64,000 nucleotides of DNA from Chloroflexota bacterium (lineage in GTDB: Bacteria > Chloroflexota > Limnocylindria > QHBO01), in contig JBDTQD010000001.1 in assembly GCA_039932375.1 (NCBI GenBank), positions 15,844 to 79,843 of the forward strand, read 5' to 3'. Position numbers and translations under genes: made by a program. Positions 3,390 through 45,704 of this stretch are shown in pieces. Below the pieces are notes generated by a model that saw only the letters and a program-made list of their open reading frames with translations, was not told the origin of the DNA and did no database searches. Position 1 is the first letter of the stretch; each line of letters starts with the position of its first letter.

Positions 3390-3970
3390 TGGTCCTCTCC
3401 GATCGCGACATCCGGTCCGAGATCGAGGCCGGACGGATCGTCATCGACCCGTTCATCCCTGATGCCGTACAGCCCTCCAGCGTCGACCTGCACCTGGACC
3501 GCCGCTTCCGCGTCTTCCGCAACAGCCGATACCCGTTCATCGACGTGCGGGCCGATCAGCCTGAGCTGACCGAGCTGGTCGAAATCGGCGGCGACGATCC
3601 ATTCATCCTGCATCCCGGCGAGTTCGTGCTGGGCTCGACCTTCGAGCGTGTCCAGCTGCCGAACGACCTCGTCGCCCGATTGGAAGGGAAAAGCTCCCTG
3701 GGACGCCTTGGACTCCTCATCCACTCGACCGCGGGCTACGTGGATCCCGGCTGGGAGGGGAACCTGACTCTCGAGCTGTCCAACGTGGCCAACCTGCCGA
3801 TCACCCTGTACGACGGCATGAAGATCGGGCAGATCAGCTTCCAGCGGCTCTCGAGCCCGGCCCAGGTTGCCTACGGAGAGGCGAGCATCGGGAGCAAGTA
3901 CCGCGGACAGCGGGACCCGACCGCCAGCCTGTACCATCGGGACTTCGAGCGAGGTCGCATCAAGCGCTAA
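3389..3970 (+). CDS. dcd: dCTP deaminase
   Basis: [22 protein letters not shown]...SSVDLHL...[15 protein letters not shown] is the Dcd/dUTPase-fold signature. Its GTG start overlaps the nrdR stop (TAGTG). Confidence 0.9.
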
Positions 3971-4069
3971 GCCGGCCATAGGCAGCCGCAGCCGGAGTTC
4001 GACGTAACCGAGCCACTCTTCGCAATCACGCCCGCGCGCCAGGCGCGCACCTATGCCGGCGACGTTCGC

Positions 4070-4897
4070 GTGCGAGTCGTGCGCGCCGGGTGGTTCCGCC
4101 CCGACGCCGGCAGCTTCTTCGGCGTGGTGCCCAGGCCCCTCTGGTCGCGCCTGGTCGAGGCCGATGATCGTGGCCGCATCCTGTGCCGCCTCAACCTGCT
4201 GCTGGTCGAGTCGGCCGGCAAGCGGGTCTTGGTCGAGACTGGCACCGGGGTGCGGATGACCGACAAGGACCGTGACATCAAGGGGATCGAGGGTGGCGAT
4301 CCGGCGGCCGCGCTGCGAGCAGCGGGTGTCGATCCGGCGAGCATCGACTTCGTGGTGGTCAGCCACCTCCATTACGACCATGCCGGCGGGTTGGTCGATG
4401 CCGATGGCACGCCCAACTTTCCGGCCGCGCGCTATGTCGTGCAGCGCGACGAGGCCGAGGCGGCACACGGCGACGAACTGCGTCTCGCTGGCATCATGGA
4501 GCGCGAGCAGCTTGATCTGGTGCGGGCTGCCGGCCAGCTGGCGGAGGTCCAGGGTGAGGTCGAGCTGGTGGCCGGGGTGAGCGTCCTCCCCACCGGCGGC
4601 CACACCCGCGGGTCGCAGGCCGTCATGCTCGGGACGCGCGGCGACGCCCGCGACGAGGCGACGGGCGAGCTTGCGATCTTCTGGGGCGACCTGATCCCAA
4701 CGCGATGGCAGATTCCCGTACGATGGACCAGCGCCTTCGACGACTACCCGATCCAGGCCGTCGAAGTCCGTAACGAGCTTGTCACCCGCGCCGCCGCCGA
4801 GGGGTGGTGGTGCTACTTCACCCACGATCCCGGCGACCTCCCGATCCAGATAGAGGCGACCGCAAGAGGATTCCAGGTCAGGAGCGAACCGCAATGA
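4070..4897 (+). CDS. MBL-fold metallo-hydrolase
   Basis: VVVSHLHYDHAGGL (HxHxDH motif) ... PTGGHTRGSQAV. 275 aa. Confidence 0.8.
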   Translation: MRVVRAGWFRPDAGSFFGVVPRPLWSRLVEADDRGRILCRLNLLLVESAGKRVLVETGTGVRMTDKDRDIKGIEGGDPAAALRAAGVDPASIDFVVVSHLHYDHAGGLVDADGTPNFPAARYVVQRDEAEAAHGDELRLAGIMEREQLDLVRAAGQLAEVQGEVELVAGVSVLPTGGHTRGSQAVMLGTRGDARDEATGELAIFWGDLIPTRWQIPVRWTSAFDDYPIQAVEVRNELVTRAAAEGWWCYFTHDPGDLPIQIEATARGFQVRSEPQ

Positions 4898-32374: not shown

Positions 32375-33589
32375 TCAGGCCGCCGCAGCGGCCTGCGCTG
32401 CGGGTAGCTCGGTCGCCAGCCGCTCGAACTGCGCCAGCTCGTTGTATGCGGCCGCACTGATTCGCACCAACCGTCGCCATGCGCCGCGATCGGGGCGCTG
32501 CGGCCAGGGGGTCACCATCACCTGCATGCCAAGCTGCGCCAGGTGGTCGTGCACCGGATCGCCGTACAGCTCGACCCCCTGCACCCGACCCGGGCGCCGC
32601 TCGATCGCCAGGGGCACCGACGCCATGCTTCCCAGCATCTCGTCCGGCGCAGGTGGCTCGATTCCCAGGGCCGCGCACAACGCGTCGCGGCCGCTCAGCG
32701 CCAGCGCGTGGTTCCGCTCACGCAGCGCTGCCCAGCCGCCGGGCAGGAGCTCCTCGCCGAAGCTGATCGCGTCGGGGACTGCCAGGTAGGCGGATTGGTC
32801 GGCCGTGCCGGTCCAATCGAATTCGCCGCGGAAGCGACTGCGATCCGTCCGCGGCGAGTTGGCGCCGTGGCTGATGGCGAGCGGGCGAATCTCCGGCTGC
32901 CGGTCGCGGCGCACCCAGAGGAAGCCGGAGCCCTTCGGCGCGCAGACCCACTTGTGCAGATTGGCGGCGTAGTACCTGGCGCCGATGCCCGGCACATCGA
33001 GCGCGACCTGACCCGGCGCATGTGCCCCGTCGATCAGTGTCTCGATGCCGCGTGCGGTGAGTTCGGCCACCAGCGCCTCGATCGGGAAGATCAGCGCGGT
33101 TGCCGAGGTGATGTGGTCGAGCACCGCCAGCCTGGTGCGCGGCGTGACGGCAGCGAGCACCGCCTCGGCGACTTCGCCCTGACCGGAGCTCGGAAAGGGG
33201 ACCGATGCGATCACCACCTGCGCCCGGTCACGCTCTGCCACGAACTCCATTGCGTTCTTGGCCGCGTTATAGGCGTGATCGGTGGTCAGCAGCTCCTCGC
33301 CGGGCGCGAAGCGCAGCGAGCGGAGCACGGTGTTGGTTCCGGCGGTCGCATTCGGCACGAAAGCCAGGTCGTCCGGATCGGCCCCGACGAACGCACCGAG
33401 AGCGGCTCGCGCGGCGTCCAGGGCCGGCTCCAGATCGTGCGAGAAGAAGCGGACCGGCTCCGCCTCCATCCGGTCGCGCCAGGCCTGCTGCGCTGCCAGC
33501 ACCGGCCGCGGGGTGGCTCCGTACGAGCCGTGGTTCAGGAAGTCGATCGCCGGGTCCAGGGTCCAGTGCCGGGCGAACTCGGAGGGCAT
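32375..33589 (-). CDS. class-V PLP-dependent aminotransferase (isopenicillin-N-epimerase/cysteine-desulfurase-like)
   Basis: 404 aa. ANLHKWVCAPKGSGFLWV contains the PLP-binding Lys. The fold is AAT_V throughout. Confidence 0.8.
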   Translation of the reverse strand: MPSEFARHWTLDPAIDFLNHGSYGATPRPVLAAQQAWRDRMEAEPVRFFSHDLEPALDAARAALGAFVGADPDDLAFVPNATAGTNTVLRSLRFAPGEELLTTDHAYNAAKNAMEFVAERDRAQVVIASVPFPSSGQGEVAEAVLAAVTPRTRLAVLDHITSATALIFPIEALVAELTARGIETLIDGAHAPGQVALDVPGIGARYYAANLHKWVCAPKGSGFLWVRRDRQPEIRPLAISHGANSPRTDRSRFRGEFDWTGTADQSAYLAVPDAISFGEELLPGGWAALRERNHALALSGRDALCAALGIEPPAPDEMLGSMASVPLAIERRPGRVQGVELYGDPVHDHLAQLGMQVMVTPWPQRPDRGAWRRLVRISAAAYNELAQFERLATELPAAQAAAAA

Positions 33590-33608
33590 CGCGGGCTATC
33601 GTAGACCG

Positions 33609-34274
33609 ATGTCCGAGACCCGAGCCGATCTGCCATCGCCCGTCGCGGTCATCTTCGACCTGGATGGCACGCTGGTCGACACGGTCGCGTTGAGGATCCA
33701 GGCGTGGCTCGCCGTCTTCTCCGAGGAGGGCATCCCAGCCGAGCGGCAGCAGCTCGCCGTGCTGATCGGATCAGACGGTCGCCGCCTCGCCCGCCAGGTG
33801 GCCAGCGCAGCGGGCGTGACGCTGACCCCGGAGCGCGAGGAGGCGATCGACGCGAGGTGCGGGGAGATCTTCGAGTCGCTTAACCGCCAGCCGAAGCCGC
33901 TGCCAGGCGTCGCCCCCCTGCTCGCGCAGCTGGACGCGGCCGGCGTGCCATGGGCGATCGCCACCTCCAGCCGTCGCGAGCAGGTCGCCACCATGGTCGA
34001 GGCGTTACACGTCGCCCGGCCGCCGCTCATCGTCGACGGCACGCACGTGGCGCACGCCAAGCCGGCTCCCGACCTCCTTCTGCTGGCAGCCCGCGAGCTG
34101 AAAGTTGATCCCGCTGCCTGCTGGTACGTCGGCGACTCGACATGGGACATGGTGGCCGCTGTCGCGGCCGGGATGGTGCCGATCGGCGTCACCAGCGGCG
34201 CGGCGGATGCCTCGACGCTGCGCGCAGCGGGGGCGCGACATGTCGTCGCGTCGCTGACCGACCTCCGGGCCTGA
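33609..34274 (+). CDS. HAD-family hydrolase (beta-phosphoglucomutase-like subfamily IA)
   Basis: VIFDLDGTLVDT (motif I) ... WAIATSS ... YVGDSTWDMVAAVAAG. Real start is the ATG at 33609. It is divergent from the aminotransferase with a 19-bp gap. Confidence 0.75.
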   Translation: MSETRADLPSPVAVIFDLDGTLVDTVALRIQAWLAVFSEEGIPAERQQLAVLIGSDGRRLARQVASAAGVTLTPEREEAIDARCGEIFESLNRQPKPLPGVAPLLAQLDAAGVPWAIATSSRREQVATMVEALHVARPPLIVDGTHVAHAKPAPDLLLLAARELKVDPAACWYVGDSTWDMVAAVAAGMVPIGVTSGAADASTLRAAGARHVVASLTDLRA

Positions 34275-34278
34275 CCCG

Positions 34279-36942
34279 ATGCCGCTCGAGACGTATCGGT
34301 CCAAGCGGGACTTCACGCGCACTCCCGAGCCTGAGCCGGGGCCGGTGGAGGAGGGGAGTGGCCGCTTCGTGGTGCAGCGCCATCGGGCCAGCCGCCTGCA
34401 CTACGACCTGCGGCTGGAGATCGGCGGCGTGCTCATCAGCTGGGCAGTGCCGCGCGGCCCGACCCTCGACCCGGGCGAGCGCCGGATGGCGATGCGCACC
34501 GAGGACCACCCGATCGAGTACCTCGACTTCGAGGGGACGATCCCGAAGGGCGAGTACGGCGCGGGGGACATGATCGTGTGGGACTGGGGCACCTTCACCC
34601 CGGAGGAGAACGATGATCCGGCCGCCGCCCTGCGCGCCGGCGAGCTGAAGTTCCGCCTGGACGGTCAGCGGCTGCGGGGCCGCTACACGATCGTCCAGAC
34701 CGGCGGGAAGCGCGATGCCTTCGGGCGCATGTCGGAGCCAGCGCAATGGCTGCTGATCCACAAGCGCGACGACGAGGCGGTCGACGGCTGGGATCCAGAG
34801 GAGCAGGCCACCAGCGTCAAGACCGGTCGCACCAACGACGAGGTGGCCGCGGGCGACGAGCCGCGATTCGTGACCGCCCCGCCGAGCTTGGAGCCAGAGC
34901 CGGACCTCTCCGCCGCCCGCCCCGCTGCGTTGCCCGACTTCATTCCACCGATGCTGGCCATCCTGACCGAGGGCGCCTTCGACGACCCCGACTGGCTGTT
35001 CGAGATCAAGCTGGACGGCTACCGGGTCGAGTCAGTCGTGCGCGACGGGCACGTGCGCCTCTGGACGCGCAACCGGATCGACGCCGCGACCTATTTCCCG
35101 GACCTGGCAGGCGCCCCGGATTGGATCGCGGCGCGCGAGGCGGTCGTCGACGGGGAGGTGGTGGCGCTCGATCCGGACGGCCGCCCCGACTTTTCGTTGC
35201 TGCAGGACCGCACCGGCCTGCGGGGCCTCGAGGCGGCCACCGGTCGCCGCTCCCGGGACGCAGCGCCCCTCTCTGCCGACGAGCGCCGCGCCATCCCGCT
35301 CGCCTACATGGTCTTTGACCTGCTCCACCTTGACGGCAGCTCGCTCCTGGACGTGCCGCTCGAGGAGCGCAAGCGGCTGCTGCATCGGATCATCCGGCCG
35401 CACCCAACCGTGCGCTATGCCTCCCACGTGGTGGGCGACGGCGAAGCGTTCGTGCGGGCAGCCGCGGAAAAGGGCCTGGAGGGGGTCGTCGCCAAGCGAC
35501 GGACCAGCCGCTACGAGCCGGGCAAGCGTTCGCACGACTGGCTGAAGATCAAGCTGCGTCGCGAGCAGGAGCTGGTGGTCGCCGGTTGGCTGCCTGGCAA
35601 GGGGAGCCACAAGGACCTCGGCTCGCTGATCGTCGCCGTGAACTCCGACGGTCGACTGCGCCACGCCGGCCAGGTCGGCAGCGGCATCTCCGCAGCGATG
35701 CGCCGCCAGCTTCTCGAGGCGCTTGAGCCAATCCGACGTGACGCATCGCCGCTCGATCCGGTGCCGCGCCTGACGGAGGCGCAATGGACCGAGCCACGCA
35801 TCGTGATCCGCGCCGAGTTTGCAGAATGGACGTCGGATGGACTCTTGCGCCAGGCAGCATTCAAGGGGATCGAGGTCAGCAAGGATCCTGCTGACGTGGT
35901 TCGCGAGGAGGCGATGCCCATGGCGCGGATCGTGAGCCGCGCACGCGCGACCAAGCCTGCCAAGCCGACGAAGCGATCCGATCCACCGAAGGACGAGGTG
36001 CAAGCAGCGACGGCTGCCGAGCTGGCCGCCCTCGATGCCATGGGCCGCGAGGGGCTATGGCAGGTGGCCGGACACGAGCTGCGCCTGACGAACCTGGAGA
36101 AGGACCTCTTTCCGGCCGACGGCGAGCATCCGCCGCTCACGAAGCGCGACCTGATCCGCCACTACGTTTCGATCGGGCCGATCCTGGTGCCGTATCTCGC
36201 CGGCAGAGGCCTGAACCTGCAGCGCTTCCCCGATGGCATCGGCCACAAGGGCTTCTGGCAGAAGGACCTGCCGGGCCACGCGCCGAGCTGGATTGCCCGC
36301 TGGACATACACCGGAAGCGAGGGAGCGAAGGACTACGTGGTGGTCGACCGCGTCGCGACACTCGCCTGGCTGGCGCAAGAGGCAGCGATCGAGCTGCATC
36401 CGTGGACCTCCCGCACCGATGCTCCCGATCGCCCGACCTACGCGCTGATCGACATCGATCCGGGGACCGATACGACATTCGAGGAGATCCTCGTTCTGGC
36501 GCGGCTGTTTCGAACGGCGCTCGAGCACCTGGGGGTGATCGGGCTGCCGAAGGTAAGCGGCAAGCGCGGCGTCCAGATCTGGGTGCCGGTCAAGCCGAAA
36601 TACGCTTTCGATGCGACCCGCGACTGGGTCGAATCGCTCTCGCGCGCCGTGGGGCAGATGGTGCCCGAGCTGGTCAGCTGGGAGTGGTCCAAGCGCGATC
36701 GGGAAGGGAAGGCGCGGCTCGACTTCACCCAGAACGCGATCAACCGGACGCTGGTCGCCCCATATTCGGCGCGACCCTCGCCGGGGGCGCCGGTCTCAGT
36801 CCCGATTCGTTGGGAGGAGCTCGACGATCCGGAGCTCGGGCCCGATCGATGGACGATCCAAACGCTGCCCGCGCGGCTGTCCGAGGTTGGCGAGCTGTTC
36901 GCGCCGGCGCTCACGCTGGCCCAGGAGCTGCCGCCGCTGTGA
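34279..36942 (+). CDS. ligD: multidomain ATP-dependent DNA ligase LigD (3'-phosphoesterase, ligase, polymerase/primase, in that order)
   Basis: N-terminus GRFVVQRHRASRLHYDLRLE (phosphoesterase domain). FEIKLDGYR (ligase motif I, KxDG). C-terminal polymerase domain (...VIGLPKVSGKRGVQIWVPV...). 887 aa. Confidence 0.9.
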   Translation: MPLETYRSKRDFTRTPEPEPGPVEEGSGRFVVQRHRASRLHYDLRLEIGGVLISWAVPRGPTLDPGERRMAMRTEDHPIEYLDFEGTIPKGEYGAGDMIVWDWGTFTPEENDDPAAALRAGELKFRLDGQRLRGRYTIVQTGGKRDAFGRMSEPAQWLLIHKRDDEAVDGWDPEEQATSVKTGRTNDEVAAGDEPRFVTAPPSLEPEPDLSAARPAALPDFIPPMLAILTEGAFDDPDWLFEIKLDGYRVESVVRDGHVRLWTRNRIDAATYFPDLAGAPDWIAAREAVVDGEVVALDPDGRPDFSLLQDRTGLRGLEAATGRRSRDAAPLSADERRAIPLAYMVFDLLHLDGSSLLDVPLEERKRLLHRIIRPHPTVRYASHVVGDGEAFVRAAAEKGLEGVVAKRRTSRYEPGKRSHDWLKIKLRREQELVVAGWLPGKGSHKDLGSLIVAVNSDGRLRHAGQVGSGISAAMRRQLLEALEPIRRDASPLDPVPRLTEAQWTEPRIVIRAEFAEWTSDGLLRQAAFKGIEVSKDPADVVREEAMPMARIVSRARATKPAKPTKRSDPPKDEVQAATAAELAALDAMGREGLWQVAGHELRLTNLEKDLFPADGEHPPLTKRDLIRHYVSIGPILVPYLAGRGLNLQRFPDGIGHKGFWQKDLPGHAPSWIARWTYTGSEGAKDYVVVDRVATLAWLAQEAAIELHPWTSRTDAPDRPTYALIDIDPGTDTTFEEILVLARLFRTALEHLGVIGLPKVSGKRGVQIWVPVKPKYAFDATRDWVESLSRAVGQMVPELVSWEWSKRDREGKARLDFTQNAINRTLVAPYSARPSPGAPVSVPIRWEELDDPELGPDRWTIQTLPARLSEVGELFAPALTLAQELPPL

Positions 36943-37255
36943 GGCGCACACACAATGGAGCCGCGGGCCGGTCACCGCTCCTGGGAGTCTCAGGATTGGG
37001 TGCCGCCCGCGGCTGATTAAGAACGTTGGAAGCGGGGGAGTGGCCTAGCTGGGCCAGCCGCCGCCGGTGTGTGCGTTGCACATATGCGTCTCCCTCGTTC
37101 AGCCGCCCCGCATGGGACGTGACTGCAGGGAGAAGGTCGTACGGGGAGGTCGCCCCTTCAATGGCCCATCAGTACCGGCACACTTGGAGCCGCCCAGTAC
37201 TTCCGTGGCATGGGTCGGTCAAATGGGGCTTGCCTAGATGGTTATACTCCCGTCA

Positions 37256-38554
37256 ATGCCGCGCACCCGCTTGGCCGCCAAGAGCGCCGAACATGACAGG
37301 GCGCTCGCCCATCAGATTGGCGCACGCCTCCGAGAGGCGCGCAAGCGGAGCGGTCTCACCCAGCAGCAGCTTGCCGGCGACCGATATACCAAGGCCTACG
37401 TGAGCGCCCTCGAGACGGGGATCGCGCGACCCTCGATGGTCGCCCTCAGCTACCTCGCCGAGCGCCTGTCGCTGCCGCCGAGCCACTTCCTTGATGAGCA
37501 GAACCCGACCTGGAGCCGGCTGGCGGTCGACATGACCCTTGCCGCCGGCGACTGGCAGGCCGCGGCCGACGGGTATGCCTCGCTGCTCGACGCCCCGCTC
37601 GACGAGCAGACACGCGCGGAGGTGCTCCGCGGCCAGGCCGAGGCAATGGCGCGCCTGGACAATGGCAAGGACGCGGTCACCGCTGCGGCGGAGGCGGCGC
37701 GCATCTTCGGAGCGCTCGGGCGCATCTCGGACGAAGCGCTGGCGCGTTACTGGCTGGCCTACGGCCTCTACCTCTCCGACCAGGAGGCCGATGCGCAGAG
37801 CCTCCTCTCCTCGCTCCTGGAGCGCGTCCGGGCCGGCTTGAAGGTCGATCCCGACTTCGAGATGCGCCTGCTGATGGCGCTCGCCGCGGTCGCCTCGCGG
37901 AGCGGCGACTACGCGCGTTCGCTCACCTTCCTGGAGACCGCCCGCGGCCTGGCCGACGATCTCGACGATCGGCGGCGGGCGATGTTCCTCTTCAACCTGG
38001 CGATCAGCTACCAGGAGACCGGCGACCTGGAGGCCGCCATTCGGACGGGGACGCAGGGCCTCGCGCTGCTCCGCTCGGCTGGGGCTGTATTCGAATCGGC
38101 CCAGATCGAGAACACGCTGGCGATGGCGTATCTGGCGACCGGCGACACCGAGCGCGCCGCCGAGCTGGCCGACGAGGCGCGTGCCGCATTCGAAGAGGTC
38201 GGTGACGACCGATTCCTGTGCGCCGTGCTCGACACCGATGCACAGGTTGCCCTGGCCCAGGGTCGTGTGCAGGACGCCGCGACCATTGCGCGACGGGCCG
38301 TCGACATGGCGCGCGCCACCGGCAACCGCGGCGTGGAGCTGACCGCCATGTTGACCGAGGCGCGTGCCCTGCGGGCACAGGACGACACGGGCAGCGCCGA
38401 GGCGCGCTACGCCGATGCCGCTGACCTGGCTCGCAGAGGCCACTCGGCGGGGCGCATGCGCGAGGTGCTGCGCGAGTGGGCGGAGCTGCGCGCCACGCTG
38501 GATGATCATCAGGGCGCCTACGAGCTGACCAGGGAGGCACTGGCAGTCAAGTAA
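37256..38554 (+). CDS. XRE-family HTH regulator with C-terminal TPR repeats
   Basis: LREARKRSGLTQQQLAGDRYTKAYVSALETG (helix-turn-helix), followed by about 8 TPR-like repeats. Confidence 0.75.
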   Translation: MPRTRLAAKSAEHDRALAHQIGARLREARKRSGLTQQQLAGDRYTKAYVSALETGIARPSMVALSYLAERLSLPPSHFLDEQNPTWSRLAVDMTLAAGDWQAAADGYASLLDAPLDEQTRAEVLRGQAEAMARLDNGKDAVTAAAEAARIFGALGRISDEALARYWLAYGLYLSDQEADAQSLLSSLLERVRAGLKVDPDFEMRLLMALAAVASRSGDYARSLTFLETARGLADDLDDRRRAMFLFNLAISYQETGDLEAAIRTGTQGLALLRSAGAVFESAQIENTLAMAYLATGDTERAAELADEARAAFEEVGDDRFLCAVLDTDAQVALAQGRVQDAATIARRAVDMARATGNRGVELTAMLTEARALRAQDDTGSAEARYADAADLARRGHSAGRMREVLREWAELRATLDDHQGAYELTREALAVK

Positions 38555-38662
38555 GTGTTGACATGTGCGGTCCGGTGCAGTTAGGCTGGGTCGCAGAGAG
38601 TTGGTCTGGGCACCCGCTCAGGCGCAAAGCCGGACGGGACCAACTCGGACGCCGGGGGAATA

Positions 38663-38693
38663 GGGATCGGAGATCGGGCACAGCTCCGATCCC
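38663..38693. terminator. perfect 10-bp stem / 11-nt loop hairpin between convergent genes
   Basis: gggatcggag-atcgggcacag-ctccgatccc. There is no T-tract, as is common in high-GC genomes. Confidence 0.3.
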
Positions 38694-38707
38694 CATGCCC
38701 GGCCACC

Positions 38708-39298
38708 TCAGGACGCCACCGGTGTTTCGACAAGCGTGAAGCGTCCCATCGCGAACGGAGCAGTCGTGCCCGACAGGTACATGCGCATCGCATAGTCGCC
38801 GGCGCCCCACGCCTTCAGGAGATCAGTGGCCTGCACCTGGTAGGCAATCAGCGGCGAGGTGGCCACGATCCCCTGCCGCGACGGCCGTTGGGCGACCGTC
38901 TCGGCCTCGCCCTCCAGCCGGATGATCTCGACCAGGATGCTGTCGCCTCCAGGCGGGGCCGCCAGCCGCACCGAGTAGGCAAACCGGTCGCCGGCGCGGA
39001 ACCGATCGGTCAGCTGGATCGCCTCGCCGGTCACCGTATCGAGTGCGGTTCCGAAGCGGATCGACAGGGGAGCGGCGCTCGGCAACGGGGTCGGCGTGGC
39101 GATGACCACCTCTGATCCGGCGCGACCCACCAGGAACGCCACCACCGCGACGCCTGCCGCCGCGGCGGCCCAGCCGATCCATCGCGCTGGTGGTCGTGAT
39201 CGTCGGCGCCGCTCACCGGCCAGCGGCATCGCCTGCCTCGGGCGCCCGGTGCGCCACCCCCGACGTGAGCTGCGCAAGCGGTCCATGTCGCGCTTCAC
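38708..39298 (-). CDS. hypothetical membrane-anchored protein
   Basis: Arg-rich N-terminus, TM helix WIGWAAAAAGVAVVAFLVG, then an extracytoplasmic domain. Confidence 0.5.
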   Translation of the reverse strand: MKRDMDRLRSSRRGWRTGRPRQAMPLAGERRRRSRPPARWIGWAAAAAGVAVVAFLVGRAGSEVVIATPTPLPSAAPLSIRFGTALDTVTGEAIQLTDRFRAGDRFAYSVRLAAPPGGDSILVEIIRLEGEAETVAQRPSRQGIVATSPLIAYQVQATDLLKAWGAGDYAMRMYLSGTTAPFAMGRFTLVETPVAS

Positions 39299-39330
39299 TC
39301 TACCGACGCGATTCCAGATACGATGGCGCC

Positions 39331-39864
39331 ATGTCGCGCCGCGTCTTCGATTTCGATACTCCTGACCGATTCGTGGCGGGCGCCCTCGGCGATCCGGGAG
39401 CGAGGAGCTTCTACCTGCAGGCTCGCCAGGGCGGTGCCGTGGTCAGCGTCGGCCTGGAGAAGACGCAGATGGCTGCACTCGCCGGCCGCCTCTCCGAGCT
39501 GCTCGACGCGGTGGAGGGGCTGGCCGAGGAGCTGCCGATCCAGGTCACGCGCGACGACCGCCCGCTCGACGAGCCGACCGTCGAGCTGTTCCGGGTGGGG
39601 GCGATGGCCCTGGCGTGGGATGCGACCACAGCGCGGGTGGTGATCGAAGCGCAGCCGCTCACCGATGACGGAGGATTTGCCGAGGTTTCCGACCAGGCGC
39701 TCGAGGGGCCCGATCTCCTGCGCGTGCGCCTTGAGGCGGCCCATGCCCGTGACTTCATCCGCCGCGCTGCCTCGCTCGTGGCGGCCGGGCGTCCTGCCTG
39801 CCCATTCTGCGGACAGCCGCTCGAGCCGACCGGCCACTTCTGCCCCAAGACGAATCTCAACTGA
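39331..39864 (+). CDS. DUF3090 family protein
   Basis: MSRRVFDFDTPDRFVAGALGDPGARSFYLQARQG...CPFCGQPLEPTGHFCPKTN. C-terminal CxxC...C zinc-ribbon typical of DUF3090. Start is at 39331, not 39190. Confidence 0.75.
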   Translation: MSRRVFDFDTPDRFVAGALGDPGARSFYLQARQGGAVVSVGLEKTQMAALAGRLSELLDAVEGLAEELPIQVTRDDRPLDEPTVELFRVGAMALAWDATTARVVIEAQPLTDDGGFAEVSDQALEGPDLLRVRLEAAHARDFIRRAASLVAAGRPACPFCGQPLEPTGHFCPKTNLN

Positions 39865-40466
39865 TGGGTGGTGCGGCCGGTGAGAACGCCGACCACGCCG
39901 GCTTCGACCCGGCGCTCCGCATCGACTGGCTCGAATCGGCTCAGCTGGGGGATGACCTGCCTGGCCGGCTGGGCCTGACGATCCTGCCTGGCAAGCACGG
40001 CGTCTCGTTTCGCTATCCCGGCCGCGTCTACGACCGCGACGTCACAGAGGATTTCCGCCATCTGCGGGCGGCCGGCGTGGAGCGACTCGTCCTGCTCGTC
40101 GAGGACGCCGAGCTGCGCAGGTGGGGCGACCCGCAGATCGTCGAGCGCGGGGCTGCCGCGGGGGTGACGGTGCTGCGTCACCCGATGGCGGATGGGCGTC
40201 CCCCCGCCTCGATGGGCGAGATGGAGGCGATCCTGGCTGAGATCCGCGAAGGGCGTCGTATACGAAACGTTGCGGTCGCATGCATGGGCGGCGTGGGGAG
40301 GAGCGGGACGGTGGCAGCCTGCGCCCTGGTCCAGGCCGGCATGAGCCCCGAGGACGCGATCGCGACGGTTCGCGCGGTGCGCCATCCGACTGCGGTCGAG
40401 ACGGCCGAGCAGGAGCGCTTCGTTCGCTCGTTCGCCGCCGCGAATCAGGCGGCAGAGCGCCGGTAG
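39864..40466 (+). CDS. Cys-based protein phosphatase (dual-specificity/CDKN3-like, CX5R)
   Basis: VAVACMGGVGRSGTVAACAL is the P-loop C(X)5R with the typical downstream G. The start overlaps the DUF3090 stop (TGATG). Confidence 0.7.
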   Translation: MGGAAGENADHAGFDPALRIDWLESAQLGDDLPGRLGLTILPGKHGVSFRYPGRVYDRDVTEDFRHLRAAGVERLVLLVEDAELRRWGDPQIVERGAAAGVTVLRHPMADGRPPASMGEMEAILAEIREGRRIRNVAVACMGGVGRSGTVAACALVQAGMSPEDAIATVRAVRHPTAVETAEQERFVRSFAAANQAAERR

Positions 40467-41110
40467 AGGGCTACACGCCAAACCCGGCCATTGCGGGCAT
40501 AAGCTGCCGCGAAGCCCCCCGCGCGCATGAGTTGGTCGATCTGCGCCGTGCGATGCACGTAAAAGCTATGGTGCCGGCCCATGAGCCGGCTAAATGTGTT
40601 GAAGATCGACATGGGCGCCCGCATCCACCAGCCGTCGTTCGGGTGCACGAGCCCGATGATCTGCGCGCCAGGAACCATCGCCGCGTGCAGCATGGCGGAC
40701 AGGTGGGGGTAGCAGCAGATCACCCGGTCGAGCGTCACCACGTCGGCGGGAGGCAGCTCAGCGGCAAGCTCGACCACGTCTCCGAAGCGATGCTCGACTC
40801 GATCGGCCAGTCCACGCCGCTCGGCCTCGGCTCGCGCCGCGGCCAGGAATGCCGCCGACGCGTCGACGTCGACCGCGCTGGCGGCTCCGACCTCGAGCAG
40901 CTCGAGGTGGACCATGCCAACTCCGGCGCCGATATCGAGCAGCCGCTTGCCCTCTACGCCTTCTTCGATCAAGGCGTCGAGGAGCTCCTGTGTCGCGCCA
41001 CGCGGGCCATGGCGGCGCCAGTCCTCGAGATCGTGCTCCGCCTCGCGTTTGTCAAAGAGCCGCTCGAAATCCTGGTCGCAGCAAAAGCGGCGTGATGGGT
41101 CGGTCGGCAC
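40445..41110 (-). CDS. class I SAM-dependent methyltransferase (small-molecule type)
   Basis: LLDIGAGVGMVHLELLE is methyltransferase motif I. No DPPY/NPPY DNA-methyltransferase motif is present. Confidence 0.7.
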   Translation of the reverse strand: MPTDPSRRFCCDQDFERLFDKREAEHDLEDWRRHGPRGATQELLDALIEEGVEGKRLLDIGAGVGMVHLELLEVGAASAVDVDASAAFLAAARAEAERRGLADRVEHRFGDVVELAAELPPADVVTLDRVICCYPHLSAMLHAAMVPGAQIIGLVHPNDGWWMRAPMSIFNTFSRLMGRHHSFYVHRTAQIDQLMRAGGFAAAYARNGRVWRVALYRRSAA

Positions 41111-41131
41111 GAGCGGATCATGCCCGTTCCG

Positions 41132-44100
41132 TCAAGCGCGCGTGGCCTGCTCGGCGGCAACCTCGACGAAGCGGCACAACGCATTGGCCAGGCGCATCTG
41201 GAGCGGCGTGTGGACGCGCACCTTCAGCAGGTTGGGCGAGGCGACCACGATCGCCAGGCAGCGACCCCGCGACGTGGCGACGTTCAGCCGATTCAGGGAG
41301 TAGAGGAACTCGATCGAGCGTGGCATCTCGTCCTGCGACGATGTCGCCATCGAGTAGATCGCGACCGCTCCCTGCTGGCCCTGGATCTTGTCGACAGTAG
41401 CAACCCACGGCGCGCGTGGCGCGACGGGGGCGTTGCTGGCGACGCTCCCCAGGCGCTCGACGAGGAGCTCCACCTGGGCGTTGTACGGGGCGATTACCAG
41501 TAGGTCCTCCGGCGTGATCAGGCAGACCTTCCCTTCGTCATTCGTCCACCTCCCGGCCAGCAGGTTCTGGTAGATGTCGACGACCGCCCCGGCCTCCTCC
41601 TCTGACGAGTTGTGGTTGCTGGCGTGGGGGATCGGCACCCATCGGACTCCCGTGCCGGTTATCGGCCCAGCCGCGTTCAATGACTGTCGCGCGGCGCTCG
41701 GCGCCGATTTCAGCTCACCCTTGTAGAAGGCCGCCGAGGTGAAAGCATTGACGTCAGGATGCAGGCGCCAGGTCTGGGCCAGGAAGAGGCCGCGGGCCGG
41801 ATCGATCACCGGCTCGCCGGCGAGCACGTGCTCGAGCGACGAGGCGTCGGCGCCTTCTGGATGAGCGCCCTTCCTTACCTGTGAGAGCTGCTGCGGGTCG
41901 CCCAGCAGGACGAGATTCTTAGCCGCACCGGAGATAGCAAGCACGTTGGCCAGCGACATCTGCCCTGCCTCGTCCACGAACAGCACGTCGACCGCGCCCG
42001 CCATCTCCGGCCGGGCCCAGAGCCACGCCGTCCCCGCCGCGACCTGCGCCTGGCCCGAGAAGAGTGCAGACGCAACCACGCCGTTGTTGTCCGTCCATTC
42101 GTAGCCGGAGTCCTTGGGCGGCTCCTCATCTTTGTCGACCTTGCGGATGGCGGAGACCCGCTGGCCTGTCCTCGCCGCGTGGGCAATCACCTCGTCGAGC
42201 AAGGTCTCGATGGCCCGATGCGTGAAGGCCACGATGCCGACCCGACGACCAGCGCGGACCAGCTCCAGGATCATCTCGGCCCCAGTGAAGGTCTTGCCCG
42301 ATCCAGGCGGTCCCTGGACCGGGAGCACAGTCTCGTCGAGGAGCATCACGAGGCGCTGCGCCGCGTCGCCGCTGGCCTCGCCCGGCAGCGTGAGTGGCGC
42401 ACCCGGTGCCTGCCCGGCGCGCGGGGGCAGCCGCAGGAGGAACTCGCGCGCCGCTCGCCACGGGCCTGGCACGCGCAGCCCGTTCGCCGCGACCCATTCA
42501 CCAAACCGTTCGAGAGCGGCCTTCTGCTCGTCAGCGGTGATCGGCCCCTTGGGAATGAGCGAGGTCGGGTGGGGCCGTGGATTCCTCAGGCCCCACTGCA
42601 GGTCCAGGGTCCCGTGAAGGGCGTCGAGCGCCATGATCTTTCCCGCCCCATGCGTCGTCGCGGGATCGACCGGATGGTCGCCCACCTTGAGCCGATACGG
42701 CTGTTCGGGGTCGAAGCGATATCGATGCCGTACCGACTGTCTCGGCCGATCGATCTCGACCATCCACTCGAGCTGCCCGATCGCCTCGTCATCCTCGGCC
42801 AGCTGCTCGTCGGACTGGCGGCAGCGCGAATAGAAAGACCACCAGTCGACATTTTCCTCGCGACGGTGCCACTCCAGCAGGTCGGCAAGCACGCGAAGGA
42901 CAGGGGCATCCGGATCCGATGGATCCGAGGCGCGCAGACGATCCGCAAGGTCGCGCCGTCGCCGGTCCTCGACGGTGAGCTCTCGCTCGAGCTCCTCTAC
43001 CTTGGCAACCGGCCGTGGGACCGCCTCACCGGTCTTTGCCGCGAGCTCGTTGCGCCGCTCCTCGAGCCAGGTCCGCAGCTCGGCGTTCGAACGGCAATCG
43101 TCCCGGTTGTAGTCGTGGATCTCATCGAGAATGGATTGGTTGGGCGCCCCCTCGCTGACCGACTGGATGTAGGCCTCGTACGCCACCACCGACGAGCCTG
43201 CGTCCTTGAGCGGCACGTCGCGGACGAGCCGGTACAGCACCTCGAGACTCTTGATCGAGTAGTTCGAAATGCCGATGCGGAGGGCCTGCCGAACGACGGA
43301 GAAAAGGTCGATGAACACCTCGCCGCGAAGGATCCGATCGACCTCCACCTCGCGCGTGGAGTGGCGGGTGGCGAGCATTCCGATGCGGCCACGCTCGTAC
43401 GAGGCGTAGTGGTAAACGTGCATCGTCGGGTCGACGCGCCATCGGTTCATGACGAAGTCGATGAAGCCCTCGAAGGCGACCTTCTCCTCGGCCCGGCTGT
43501 GTCCCCACCAGGTGTGGAAGGTCGGTGTGCCCGCGTCGATCAGTACCATGGGGTCCCAGACGCCGAACAGGTACTCGAGCCCGTCATCCTCGGCGAACGG
43601 GTCACCCTCCATGTCGAAGAAGAGGTCGCCCGCCGCCGGCTCTGGCAGCGCGCCGAGACCACGGTTCTCTTCGACTCCCAGGAACTCGTAGCGGGGCTGA
43701 GCCAATCCCCGGGACTCGTGCTGCAGGCGCGCCTGCTGATGCAGGTTGCCGAGCACCACGTCGCTCAGATTCGGAACGACCGGCAGCATCGGACCGAGGG
43801 TGGCCAGGGCAGTGAAGGTCCCGATCCCGGCATCGGTCAGGCGGCGGGCGGCATCTGAGCGCATGCCGGCCACCAGGCTCAGATGGTCAGCCTCGGTGCG
43901 CAGGTTGGAGCAGTACGCACTCCAGCGACAGACGCCGCAGTGGCCCACCGGCGGCGGCGTGACGGCGAGCGGGTAGATGAGAGGCTCGTCGGCGGCAACC
44001 GCGGTCATGAAGCGAGCCTTGACGCTGCGGAAGTAGGCCAGGTAGTCGTCCAGCCGATGCGAATCGACGCGGTGGCCGCTGCCGCCGAGCGCCACATGCA

Positions 44101-44683
44101 TCTTCTCCGGCATGCGCCCCTGCTCGCGGGCAAGCAGATCGGAATAGACGCACATCTGCAGCAGCGCGCCGCCCTTGACGTGGCGCGCCAGCTTGGTGTC
44201 CGCGACCTCGTAGTGATAGTCGCCAAGGTCGCTCCCCGCGCCTGGCCCGTCAATTCGGAGAAGGAAGTCGGCATATCCGAGCCATGCACCGTCGAAGAGT
44301 GTTGCCTGGTAGATAACATCGGCGCCGTCGTGCATCCGTTCGCGCGTCAGCGCCGCGTCAAGCTCGACCTCCGCAAGCGTGCTGCGGCCTGGATCCGGCC
44401 ATCGGTCGATCCGACCGTCGACCACGGTCCGCCCCTCTTCCCGGAGGTAGGCAAGGTATCGCTCCTCGTGCTCCAGGCCGCGACGCTGCAGGACATCGAG
44501 CTCGGGATCGACGCGATCCGGCCTCTCGAGGTCTGTGACGAACACGGCGCGCTCGAGAGTGGTCAGGTGCTCGCATTCGAGGTAGCCGACGAGGTCGCTG
44601 GCGCTATAGACCCTGGTGCCGTCGAGGTCCTGCATGCTGCCTCGAAGCCTAGCCCGCTCGGCTGGGCGACGAGCGAAATGCAC
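41132..44683 (-). CDS. 1183-aa fusion protein: Cas4/RecB-like PD-(D/E)xK nuclease with Fe-S Cys cluster (TM0106-family N-terminus), RNase H-like 3'-5' exonuclease-like domain, and Upf1/Dna2-type SF1B helicase
   Basis: Nuclease domain: Cys37 (YLECEH) plus HCGVCRWSAYC (C-x2-C-x5-C, aa 249-259), EVADTK, LQMCVY (QxxxY). Exonuclease-like domain: LFFDMEGDP, YHYASYE. Helicase motifs: GPPGSGKT (aa 791-798, nt 42290-42313), VLFVDEAGQ, LLGDPQQL, TVDKIQGQQ, NRLNVATSRGR. Confidence 0.85.
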   Translation of the reverse strand: MHFARRPAERARLRGSMQDLDGTRVYSASDLVGYLECEHLTTLERAVFVTDLERPDRVDPELDVLQRRGLEHEERYLAYLREEGRTVVDGRIDRWPDPGRSTLAEVELDAALTRERMHDGADVIYQATLFDGAWLGYADFLLRIDGPGAGSDLGDYHYEVADTKLARHVKGGALLQMCVYSDLLAREQGRMPEKMHVALGGSGHRVDSHRLDDYLAYFRSVKARFMTAVAADEPLIYPLAVTPPPVGHCGVCRWSAYCSNLRTEADHLSLVAGMRSDAARRLTDAGIGTFTALATLGPMLPVVPNLSDVVLGNLHQQARLQHESRGLAQPRYEFLGVEENRGLGALPEPAAGDLFFDMEGDPFAEDDGLEYLFGVWDPMVLIDAGTPTFHTWWGHSRAEEKVAFEGFIDFVMNRWRVDPTMHVYHYASYERGRIGMLATRHSTREVEVDRILRGEVFIDLFSVVRQALRIGISNYSIKSLEVLYRLVRDVPLKDAGSSVVAYEAYIQSVSEGAPNQSILDEIHDYNRDDCRSNAELRTWLEERRNELAAKTGEAVPRPVAKVEELERELTVEDRRRRDLADRLRASDPSDPDAPVLRVLADLLEWHRREENVDWWSFYSRCRQSDEQLAEDDEAIGQLEWMVEIDRPRQSVRHRYRFDPEQPYRLKVGDHPVDPATTHGAGKIMALDALHGTLDLQWGLRNPRPHPTSLIPKGPITADEQKAALERFGEWVAANGLRVPGPWRAAREFLLRLPPRAGQAPGAPLTLPGEASGDAAQRLVMLLDETVLPVQGPPGSGKTFTGAEMILELVRAGRRVGIVAFTHRAIETLLDEVIAHAARTGQRVSAIRKVDKDEEPPKDSGYEWTDNNGVVASALFSGQAQVAAGTAWLWARPEMAGAVDVLFVDEAGQMSLANVLAISGAAKNLVLLGDPQQLSQVRKGAHPEGADASSLEHVLAGEPVIDPARGLFLAQTWRLHPDVNAFTSAAFYKGELKSAPSAARQSLNAAGPITGTGVRWVPIPHASNHNSSEEEAGAVVDIYQNLLAGRWTNDEGKVCLITPEDLLVIAPYNAQVELLVERLGSVASNAPVAPRAPWVATVDKIQGQQGAVAIYSMATSSQDEMPRSIEFLYSLNRLNVATSRGRCLAIVVASPNLLKVRVHTPLQMRLANALCRFVEVAAEQATRA

Positions 44684-44927
44684 AAGGACCGGTGGCGTTC
44701 ATGTGGGTATCGTCGGGCGAGCATGTGACACCTCTCCTGTCGCAAGCGTTTTCCCTTCCCGTATCACTGGCACCGATAGCTCGGCGCAATAGGTCGACGC
44801 TGCGGGGTCTGTCATCGGTCAGGGCGATGCCGCGTTGCCCAACAACCCTATCGGTGCTGATGTATCGGCCCCAGCGATACGTGGCTGATCGCGGTGCGGC
44901 CACGCGCCTACTCGGCCTTGTGCGGCC

Positions 44928-45704
44928 CTAGGCCGGAATGGTCGCCGTGCGCACGAAGGTGAGGGCCCAGCTGCAGTCCGAGGTGACACGCACGAAGATG
45001 TCGCCCTTCAGCTCGGGGTGCGAGGCAAAGAAGTCGCCGTACAGGTTCCCCGGGGCCGGCGCGGTGCCGAGGGTGGCGCGGATCGCCGGCACGGCGGTGC
45101 CACTGCCGGGCACCAGGTCGACCGAGAACGAGCAGCCGCCGCCGCCCGGCAGCACGGAGGCAGCCCAACGCACGGCGTAGTTGGCATCCTCGATCCGCAC
45201 GGGGCCATTCTCCGCGTTCCCCTCGTGCGAGAAGCCGGCCACGATCGGATTGAAGGGGAGCACGAAGTCGGCCGGGGCCAGGAACGGACTGGGCATGAAG
45301 CCCGCCGCGACCCAGCCCTCCTCGAACTTCGGCGCTCTGGCATCCGCGTCGCGCACCAGGTACCAGCCGTAGCCGTCGGTGCGCACCGGGCCGAGCTCGA
45401 CCACCAGGTTGCTCCCCGTCGGCAGCAGGGCCACCACTCCCTGCTTGGTGCCCGGTCCGGATCGGACGCGCAGGCCAGCCGCGCCGGTCGCGACCTTGGC
45501 GCCGGCAGTGAAGGTTGGGATCTTGTCCGGTCCGGGAGTGGGCGCCACGGTGGCCGTGGGGGGTGGAAGCGATCCCGATGGCGCAACGCTGGCCGGTCGC
45601 GACGCGCTGGCACTCGCGGAAGGCGATGGGCTCGGCGCGCCGAATAGGCAGCCGTTCAGCAGCAGCGCGCAGAGCGCCAGCGCGATCGGGGCGAGTCGTC
45701 GCAT
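44928..45704 (-). CDS. lipoprotein with bacterial SH3-like domain
   Basis: Lipobox LLLNGC, then a Pro/Ser/Ala linker. GLRVRSGPGTKQGVVALLPTGSNLVVELGPVRTDGYGWYLV is SH3b-like. Confidence 0.55.
   Translation of the reverse strand: MRRLAPIALALCALLLNGCLFGAPSPSPSASASASRPASVAPSGSLPPPTATVAPTPGPDKIPTFTAGAKVATGAAGLRVRSGPGTKQGVVALLPTGSNLVVELGPVRTDGYGWYLVRDADARAPKFEEGWVAAGFMPSPFLAPADFVLPFNPIVAGFSHEGNAENGPVRIEDANYAVRWAASVLPGGGGCSFSVDLVPGSGTAVPAIRATLGTAPAPGNLYGDFFASHPELKGDIFVRVTSDCSWALTFVRTATIPA

Follow-up and report, generated by a model that had tools for sequence, protein, structure and literature searches.

What does a single bacterial polypeptide do that appears to unite two nucleases with a helicase, and under which conditions is it made? 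The question is raised by an open reading frame (ORF) at positions 41132-44683, minus strand, of a 64,000-nucleotide (64-kb) stretch of contig JBDTQD010000001.1 (assembly GCA_039932375.1) from a Limnocylindria bacterium of the phylum Chloroflexota. This whole stretch is called the window below, and the loci compared with it, which either bear a homologue or share its flanks, are labelled with L numbers. We propose that the encoded protein is an inducible degrader of DNA ends, for which defence against phages, plasmids or other invading DNA is likelier than repair, and we give this reading a probability of roughly one half.

The ORF comprises 1183 codons when counted mechanically from a GTG, and its GC content at the three codon positions (0.72/0.46/0.83) is like that of real genes of this window, which has 68% GC. 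Since homologues and the alignment consensus begin at M17, and since a GAGG lies 5 nt upstream of the ATG at 44635 as a candidate ribosome-binding site (RBS), the true start is probably this ATG, which gives a protein of 1167 amino acids (aa). An earlier note on this DNA had described a 1183-aa ORF preceded by its own, less GC-rich region of 245 bp: the ORF is real (third-position GC 0.83), its start is likely at M17, the upstream region counted from the ATG measures 292 bp, and its GC content is lower by just a little (0.644 vs 0.671 for the gene). The closest database proteins come from Chloroflexota metagenome-assembled genomes of ‘Candidatus Limnocylindria’, one partial entry being 100% identical. 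The gene and its predicted domains, with residues numbered from the GTG-started 1183-aa ORF throughout, are as follows.

41132-44635, minus strand: nuclease-exonuclease-helicase coding sequence, probable ATG start, stop codon at 41132-41134 (mechanical ORF extending to the GTG at 44683)
43784-44635, minus strand: N-terminal PD-(D/E)xK nuclease with the Cas4/AddB/Dna2 ‘iron-staple’ Cys pattern, aa ~17-300, from TIGR03491, conservation, AlphaFold2 and Foldseek; key residues C37, C249, C252, C258, D139, E159, D162, K164, Q176, Y180
43049-43666, minus strand: RNase-H-fold 3'-5' exonuclease-like domain, aa ~340-545; D357, E359, D361, D459, D528, D529, also H425, Y429, E430
42374-43048, minus strand: helical linker and small beta-barrel ahead of the motor, aa ~546-770; AlphaFold2 helices 562-629, strands 639-698
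41135-42373, minus strand: superfamily 1B (SF1B) helicase core of the Upf1/Dna2/IGHMBP2 type, aa ~771-1183; K797, DEAG 904-907, GDPQQ 928-932, R973, Q1101, R1139

Profile searches matched each of the three segments that the earlier note had singled out. TIGR03491 aligned with aa 27-540 over model positions 2-462 of 462 (E 1.5e-66; 225.2 bits against a cutoff of 97.45), and Pfam profile searches matched PF13482 (RNase_H_2) to aa 354-540 (E 6e-18) and AAA_11, AAA_12, AAA_30 and AAA_19 to aa 781-1149. The linker and barrel (aa ~546-770) had no Pfam or NCBIfam match; by analogy, they may be the counterpart of the stalk and barrel accessory domains of Upf1/Dna2-type helicases. Every motif quoted earlier was found in its place: C37 in YLECEH, C249-x2-C252-x5-C258 and Q176xxxY180 in the nuclease; FFDMEGDP (355-362) and YHYASYE (424-430) in the exonuclease; and, in the helicase, the Walker A sequence GPPGSGKT (aa 791-798, nt 42290-42313), DEAG (904-907), LLGDPQQL (926-933), TVDKIQGQQ and NRLNVATSRGR.

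In an alignment of 49 homologous sequences with 49-80% identity to the protein, the invariant residues were D139, D162, K164, Q176, Y180, C249, C252 and C258 of the nuclease, D357, E359, D361, D459, D528 and D529 of the exonuclease, and K797, D904, E905, Q932, R973 and R1139 of the helicase, while C37 and E159 were conserved in at least 90%. The possibility of a degenerate domain was thereby checked, the proposed catalytic residues being invariant or nearly so, and the four cysteines are placed to hold a predicted iron-sulfur (Fe-S) cluster in the nuclease domain. An AlphaFold2 model run with the homologue alignment reached pLDDT 89.5 and pTM 0.86 and was confident over the nuclease domain. 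Profiles, residue conservation and model bear out the reading of three modules; the TM0106 module takes up the first ~46% of the chain instead of the two thirds assumed before. As far as sequence can tell, the gene is intact and keeps all three catalytic modules with their residues.

When the model was compared with the Protein Data Bank (PDB) using Foldseek, mouse Dna2 (5EAN) was the top match, with nuclease and helicase both aligned (E 8e-24), followed by Upf1, IGHMBP2, Setx/Sen1 and nsp13; the N-terminal 544 aa had no PDB sequence match even at E 10. Like Dna2, the protein has an iron-staple RecB-family nuclease (C...CxxCx5C) and a C-terminal SF1B helicase with all motifs; unlike Dna2, it carries a PolB-like 3'-5' exonuclease between nuclease and motor, so that the layout seen in the model is Dna2-like with an extra, predicted proofreading-type exonuclease. 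The sequence likeness is confined to the helicase (aa 774-948), and the global TM-score of 5EAN against the model is only 0.34-0.37. Furthermore, Dna2 is an essential replication factor, whereas the protein described here is bacterial, accessory and apparently inducible.

Among bacterial proteins, Bad of Geobacillus stearothermophilus also joins an Fe-S RecB-family nuclease, a central domain and an SF1B helicase in one polypeptide. It is a 5'-3' motor on single-stranded DNA (ssDNA) and a flap-preferring endonuclease, is sporadically distributed, adjoins a type III-like DNA methylase and is suspected of a restriction-like role (PMC7430649). Our likening of the two bacterial single-polypeptide Fe-S nuclease/SF1B helicases follows the published description, and so does their separation: the centre of Bad is reported to be without detectable homology (PMC7430649), whereas the centre of our protein is a recognisable PF13482 domain, and the type III-like methylase beside Bad has no counterpart here in a conserved DNA methylase neighbour. 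A ‘second class’ from Mycobacteria and Rhodococcus is also mentioned there (PMC7430649) and may or may not be the present family. Nhi (SERP2475; 606 aa), composed of a DUF2075 helicase and an HsdR-like nuclease and known to limit phage DNA accumulation (bioRxiv 10.1101/776245), likewise combines a PD-(D/E)xK nuclease with an SF1 helicase in one polypeptide and is sporadic and often plasmid-borne; it has neither an Fe-S motif nor an RNase-H-like domain, both of which are predicted in our 1167-aa protein. Homology to Nhi was rejected, there being no PF09848 (DUF2075) match and no Nhi model among the PADLOC hits. Thus, of the two resemblances drawn earlier, the one to the Dna2 layout holds, Dna2 being the top Foldseek match, and Nhi is an analogue, not a relative. 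RecBCD, AddAB and AdnAB are multi-subunit SF1A machines (plus the SF1B RecD) with Chi regulation, in contrast to a single SF1B polypeptide that has a proofreading-type exonuclease and is not known to obey a recognition sequence.

The architecture is not new: the protein is one more member of a known and named, though uncharacterised, family, COG2251/TIGR03491 (‘TM0106 family RecB-like putative nuclease’ at NCBI), and it has the same PD-(D/E)xK and RNase-H-like exonuclease module without structural difference. The architecture was listed in 2014 as the PF13482-containing cluster F.13, COG2251, and the RNase-H-like domain was then predicted to be a 3'-5' exonuclease (Majorek et al., PMC3985635). 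The earlier reading is right in essence: the context points to an ‘undescribed defence or repair system’, with the caveat that the architecture was catalogued in 2014 and the family already has its name at NCBI. That no function is established for it agrees with the searched literature, which holds no experimental characterisation. What is new here is a conserved, putative operator of the WYL type, allele swapping and presence or absence at the gene's own locus, and an apparent association with defence islands elsewhere and on plasmids; neither such an operator nor the behaviour of an accessory cassette is in the family description.

Full-length relatives were found in at least 589 GTDB species representatives, in Chloroflexota, Actinomycetota, Dormibacterota, Eremiobacterota, Acidobacteriota and Pseudomonadota. 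The N-terminal module alone returned 7,526 clusters at 50% identity, 1,710 of them with E <= 1e-30, and since the best matches are mostly ~1,110-1,200 aa long, the helicase fusion is the dominant form. A full-length homologue of 47% identity was also seen on a 116-kb contig binned as Nitrosotalea sp., an ammonia-oxidising archaeon (L017); this copy represents either a cross-domain transfer or a binning error.

Does the gene belong to the fixed part of its chromosome? A same-flank comparison anchored on the neighbouring HTH-TPR gene recovered 66 metagenomic loci, and within the same flanks as in the window three states were found: an allele of the window's type (65-79% identity), another allele that is 45-54% identical to the window's (L096, L104, L132 and L013, the copies of the first three being closest to that of L013), and no such gene at all (L110, L140). 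At the DNA level, the window and L096 share a contiguous 77% identity over 33000-41406, which ends ~270 bp inside the 3' end of the gene, while with L100 the 77% identity runs straight through it. L110 is without exactly 40424-44937 of the window, that is, the downstream methyltransferase, the gene and its promoter, and has 1.19 kb of low-complexity DNA instead (L110 4201-5391); L114 is without the methyltransferase only (L114 3408-3472). The methyltransferase and the nuclease-helicase gene are therefore separately variable insertions in conserved flanks, and the latter behaves as an accessory cassette.

40445-41110, minus strand: class I S-adenosylmethionine methyltransferase, 21 nt downstream of the gene, with generic profile matches

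The two genes lie on the same strand, as the earlier note had it, with a gap of 21 nt where it counted 22. This arrangement, together with their joint absence in L110 and with the adjoining Bad and DNA methylase genes of Geobacillus (PMC7430649), could indicate a restriction-modification (RM)-like pair such as has been proposed for Bad and its type III-like methylase. That explanation is largely refuted. The methyltransferase matched generic class I models for small-molecule or protein substrates only, all below their cutoffs, and no DNA-methylase model; it is absent from L114, L108 and L013 in the presence of the nuclease gene, lies elsewhere in L028 and is not a neighbour outside Limnocylindria. 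The previous view that it is a small-molecule-like enzyme and that such a pairing is unlikely is in line with these generic matches and with its not being a conserved partner.

The surroundings of copies in other lineages speak for defence. Copies of 72-96% identity in Solirubrobacterales and Dehalococcoidia have 0-1 of ~10 neighbours in common, and these neighbourhoods include MmeI-type IIG RM genes (3-4 loci), AbiEi/AbiEii, LmuB, PbeA, a ThsB TIR protein, DUF5131, T5orf172, integrases, IS110, a type III methylase and DrmD-like genes. The neighbours in L089 include toxin-antitoxin modules, a NERD-UvrD gene and a methylase with Vsr. Full-length copies occur on 60 plasmids, some with 2-3 copies. 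On all eight plasmids inspected the homologue lies in a defence-like or mobile-element neighbourhood, with clear defence islands in at least four: type I RM, McrBC, a toxin and an integrase in Acaryochloris, a SIR2-ATPase, a dGTPase and a multiubiquitin/ThiF/DUF6527 system in R. etli, Dnd-like and SbcCD-like genes in Mesorhizobium, and SIR2 and Fic in Piscirickettsia. Toxin-antitoxin genes are also found around the plasmid copies. The comparison of neighbourhoods suggested by the earlier note thus gives a variable and defence-rich context in Solirubrobacterales, Dehalococcoidia, plasmids and L089, and a housekeeping one in the window and many chromosomal loci.

Two further arrangements were observed at these loci. 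A multiubiquitin/(E2)/ThiF/DUF6527 set occurs on two unrelated plasmids, Phenylobacterium pA (L082 4618-7043) and R. etli pRsp8C3a (L085 12407-14217), abutting the homologue in R. etli and separated from it by one hypothetical gene in Phenylobacterium; this may be more than the chance co-location of two defence-type modules. In addition, a second helicase gene lies directly upstream on the same strand in L081 (1642-11363), L089 (8264-13525) and L087 (7506-12366). It is a helicase-related protein accompanied by a 1034-aa hypothetical protein on Ensifer pCTYH.Ch1_3 (L081), a NERD-UvrD protein 4 bp upstream of the homologue in L089, and a DEAD/DEAH helicase in Piscirickettsia (L087). Some family members may work with a second motor.

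The plasmid copies could also be read in another way, with the protein serving the mobile elements themselves, either as cargo for their replication, recombination or establishment or as a means of anti-defence or competitor exclusion. Several of the 60 plasmids carry the gene near repABC or recombinase/integrase genes, some hold the 2-3 copies mentioned, and four viral contigs of IMG/VR (L157-L160) bear full-length homologues of 37-41% identity. We consider this explanation improbable, however, as most copies are chromosomal, many of them without mobile-element genes within 10 kb, no full-length copy was found among 50,697 phage genomes, and each of the four viral copies lies at or near a contig end. 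The latter position suggests host flanks, and these contigs may be prophage-adjacent host DNA or may carry the gene as prophage cargo. A phage-borne origin was rejected on the same two grounds, 0 of 50,697 phage genomes and merely four IMG/VR copies at contig ends.

A census of neighbour families in 70 non-redundant homologue loci placed the 131 nearest neighbours in 123 Pfam families and the 124 second-nearest in 167. None is widely common, by which a conserved partner gene is excluded. Besides metabolic or housekeeping families, the nearest neighbours comprised WYL/WCX, T5orf172, ResIII, Vsr, DinB, transposase and scattered PADLOC matches.

How would such a gene be switched on? It has an upstream region of its own, in which the following elements were recognised.

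44636-44927, minus strand: upstream region of the gene, 292 bp, with operator, candidate -10 and leader
44725-44743, minus strand: palindromic operator GCGACAGGAGAGGTGTCAC, family consensus GCGACAGG-N3-CCTGTCGC, with a DriD-like half-site and a PafBC/RecA-NDp-like TGTCR box
44709-44714, minus strand: candidate -10 GACGAT at RecA-NDp spacing from the operator
44646-44651, minus strand: TAGGCT of the conserved leader GGCTAGGCTTCGAGG, which ends in the RBS (eight orthologous upstream regions compared)

The operator is the only strong position weight matrix site in the window (23.5 bits, the runner-up having 12.2). The orthologues of L001-L006 and L028 have kept it in their upstream DNA, as has the divergent L013, and related sites are also present in Dormibacterota, Sphingomonas and two rhizobial plasmids. 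The half-site CGACAG/CTGTCG is equal to that of the Caulobacter DriD site, given as ATACGACAGTTACTGTCGTAT in PMC10853764, while the spacer of the Limnocylindria palindrome is 2 bp longer than in the DriD consensus; L066 has a site of the DriD type itself, CGACAG-N3-CTGTCG. In most relatives 11 nt separate the right half from a TAnnnT hexamer, and a TGTCR box at this distance is likewise found in the PafBC-dependent mycobacterial RecA-NDp promoter, ‘tTGTCRgtg-8 nt-TAnnnT’ (quoted in PMC5656591). Exact TGTCR-N11-TAnnnT was found in seven upstream regions (26 kb in total) against 0.16 expected (L001, L005, L028, L015, L021, L059 and L040, including Dormibacterota and an actinomycete), and the looser GACA-N3-9-TGTCR upstream in 9 of 77 loci against 1.2 expected. 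A sigma-70 consensus scan around the gene gave no promoter-like site, and a terminator scan there gave intrinsic-terminator-like sites at chance level. In the window, 292 bp separate the gene from the one upstream, vs 25-100 bp in relatives.

L028 contains a second copy of the operator, GGGACAGGAGAGCTGTCGC at 4455-4473, followed by TAGGCT at 11 nt. It is separated by 6 nt from the start codon (ATG) of an ORF for a patatin-like protein, MTRRILSIDGGGVRG... (3455-4432, minus strand), a hint that a small regulon may have a phospholipase among its members.

Genes for WYL regulators lie directly beside the homologue in L011, L030, L047, L064 and L066, which belong to four phyla, and on the R. etli and Mesorhizobium plasmids. 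Of these WYL genes, the one in L011 is on the same strand as the homologue, and the other four chromosomal ones and both plasmid ones are divergent from it; the interval between the two genes holds a related site upstream of the homologue on both plasmids and in L011, L047 and L066. The intergenic DNA of the rhizobial plasmids has GTGACAGCTTTTGTCGC and GTGACAGCTATTGTCAC, then TATAGC and TACGGT, respectively, at the same spacing. With 4 of 131 nearest neighbours, WYL is one of the commonest nearest-neighbour families, level with MUG113/T5orf172 and behind Bac_luciferase (5), and it is the only recurrent neighbour family tied to the homologue by a common upstream site. PafBC and DriD are ssDNA-activated regulators, and CapW and BrxR are WYL regulators of defence operons (PMC11804915, PMC10853764, PMC11662680, PMC9122601); a WYL gene adjoining the homologue, mostly in divergent orientation, resembles the arrangement of BrxR/CapW-type regulators (PMC9122601). 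Given the likeness in operator and spacing and the adjoining WYL genes in several phyla, induction in response to ssDNA is suggested: the gene may have its own ssDNA-responsive promoter under a WYL-type regulator of the DriD/PafBC class.

The strongest competing explanation assigns the protein to the DNA-damage response: as a member of a PafBC/DriD-type regulon, it would serve repair by resecting or trimming broken ends or flaps. In this role it would supply non-homologous end joining (NHEJ) through LigD, or recombination in organisms where RecBCD, AddAB or AdnAB are lacking or supplemented. The operator and its spacing match those of known DNA-damage activators (PMC5656591, PMC10853764), and Dna2, AddB and MrfB all act in repair. 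DinB and Vsr genes occur now and then among the neighbours, and a complete LigD gene lies nearby in the window.

34279-36942, plus strand: complete LigD with phosphoesterase, ligase and primase-polymerase, 4 kb from the gene; the upstream gene at 33282-34274 (plus strand) encodes a HAD hydrolase

LigD is syntenic in all Limnocylindria loci, and LigD-family genes lie within 10 kb of the homologue in three other lineages (L040/L046, L062, L063). Repair would also fit the housekeeping context of the window and the local orthologues evolving at their neighbours' rate. Against it stand the absence of the gene, or its replacement by the 45-54% identical allele, within the same flanks, the 72-96% identical copies in unrelated contexts rich in RM, Abi and Lamassu genes, and the plasmid copies in defence islands. 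Moreover, the operator was not found at LigD, no Ku gene lies beside LigD, where the HAD hydrolase gene is found instead, and the association with LigD is seen in about four lineages only, of dozens. Repair is, in our judgement, an unlikely though by no means far-fetched account of the gene. A functional operon or regulon with LigD and NHEJ was considered and set aside as weak, given the ~4 lineages within 10 kb, the lack of an adjoining Ku and the lack of the operator at LigD; the LigD gene 4 kb away is probably incidental.

The other genes around the locus complete the picture. On one side lie genes for an HD hydrolase, an aminotransferase, the HAD hydrolase, LigD, the HTH-TPR regulator, DUF3090, a dual-specificity (DSP)-type phosphatase and the methyltransferase; on the other, a 258-aa protein with a weak SH3 match, MsrB, and further redox, two-component and cytochrome oxidase genes. 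The DUF3090 (TIGR03847) and dual-specificity-phosphatase-like genes (39190-40466, plus strand) overlap by stop and start at base 39864. Their synteny holds for nearly all Limnocylindria loci spanning this position, the phosphatase match being missing in L132 and L138.

Taking the defence reading forward, a mechanism can be proposed by analogy. The motor would load on a 5' single-stranded tail and move in the 5'->3' direction, as expected from SF1B polarity, from Bad (PMC7430649) and from Dna2 (PMC4716839). The 5' strand would be fed through the Fe-S nuclease and cut, as in Dna2 and Bad, and the displaced 3'-ended strand would be trimmed by the exonuclease domain, so that a free DNA end might lose both its strands to one protein, in the manner of RecBCD and AddAB. 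Transcription from the gene's own promoter would be controlled by an ssDNA-sensing WYL regulator of the DriD/PafBC class, and the enzyme would therefore be made when ssDNA accumulates, whether from damage or from phage or plasmid replication. Genome dynamics suggest that the main role would be to destroy invading DNA with free ends or replication intermediates.

A motor of this type might instead act on RNA. Since Upf1, Sen1 and IGHMBP2 are its relatives in kind, it could work on RNA or R-loops while the nucleases degrade RNA or RNA-DNA hybrids. This is highly improbable: Fe-S nucleases of the Cas4/AddB/Dna2 kind and PolB-type proofreading domains are textbook DNA enzymes, and Bad, the bacterial analogue that has been characterised, moves along DNA (PMC7430649).

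Several observations weigh against an inducible defence enzyme and have to be set beside those in its favour. In the window, the surroundings are ordinary chromosomal housekeeping genes, with no Ku, integrase, transposase or recognised defence gene among the neighbours, and no WYL gene was found in the 64 kb. Elsewhere, L090 shows a plain housekeeping context, nearest neighbours are a mixture of metabolic or housekeeping genes with defence or mobile types and second-nearest neighbours are mostly metabolic (70 loci), and the association with defence neighbours is given as raw, uncalibrated counts. The orthologue evolves at the rate of its neighbours in the closest genomes, and the nearest-neighbour relations of the protein are mostly taxonomically coherent. 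As for catalogued defence systems, a search of the known anti-phage models of PADLOC v2 and NCBIfam 20 led to the rejection of MkoA/MkoC, DpdJ, Hhe, PLuB and ProA, the matches being to the helicase core only, with no partner genes nearby; the partial matches were MkoA at aa 873-1155, DpdJ at 789-1173 and PLuB with 66 bits against a cutoff of 999. Literature searches with TM0106, TIGR03491, PF13482 and COG2251 returned no functional study. Rv1251c of M. tuberculosis and MSMEG_1252 of M. smegmatis were considered as candidate orthologues (PMC5656591), and the papers that mention them assign no function. The operator would suit repair just as well, since what DriD and PafBC control is the response to DNA damage. 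For the window, the -10 at canonical spacing is GACGAT and not TAnnnT, and a ~60-nt stretch with CCACATGA lies between operator and leader (window 44652-44724, minus strand; L002 8461-8520; L003 2702-2770); it is common to the window, L002 and L003 only and missing from the other orthologues. These two features, like the lack of a WYL gene in the 64 kb, weaken the case for the window's promoter.

For the family as a whole, we suggest tentatively, with somewhat less confidence than an even bet, that TM0106-helicase proteins may constitute an unrecognised and very widespread single-gene immune system, a one-polypeptide ‘RecBCD-like’ destroyer of DNA ends, made up of a Dna2-type endonuclease, a proofreading-type exonuclease and an SF1B motor, which would be silenced by a WYL regulator and induced by the ssDNA of phage or plasmid replication. 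If this is true, a function and a regulatory circuit would become available for a family that is spread over hundreds of species in at least six phyla and over dozens of plasmids and that is annotated so far as a ‘putative nuclease’ only, and the protein would be a candidate missing from defence catalogues, at least from PADLOC v2 and NCBIfam 20. A polymerase-type 3'-5' exonuclease would be the third activity added to the nuclease-helicase theme of Dna2, Bad, Nhi and RecBCD, and the protein would offer a compact model for the destruction of both strands of a DNA end by one polypeptide. The common operator would tie the DNA-damage activators PafBC and DriD to a gene that resembles a defence cassette, and would thereby bear on how cells may tell damage from infection via ssDNA.

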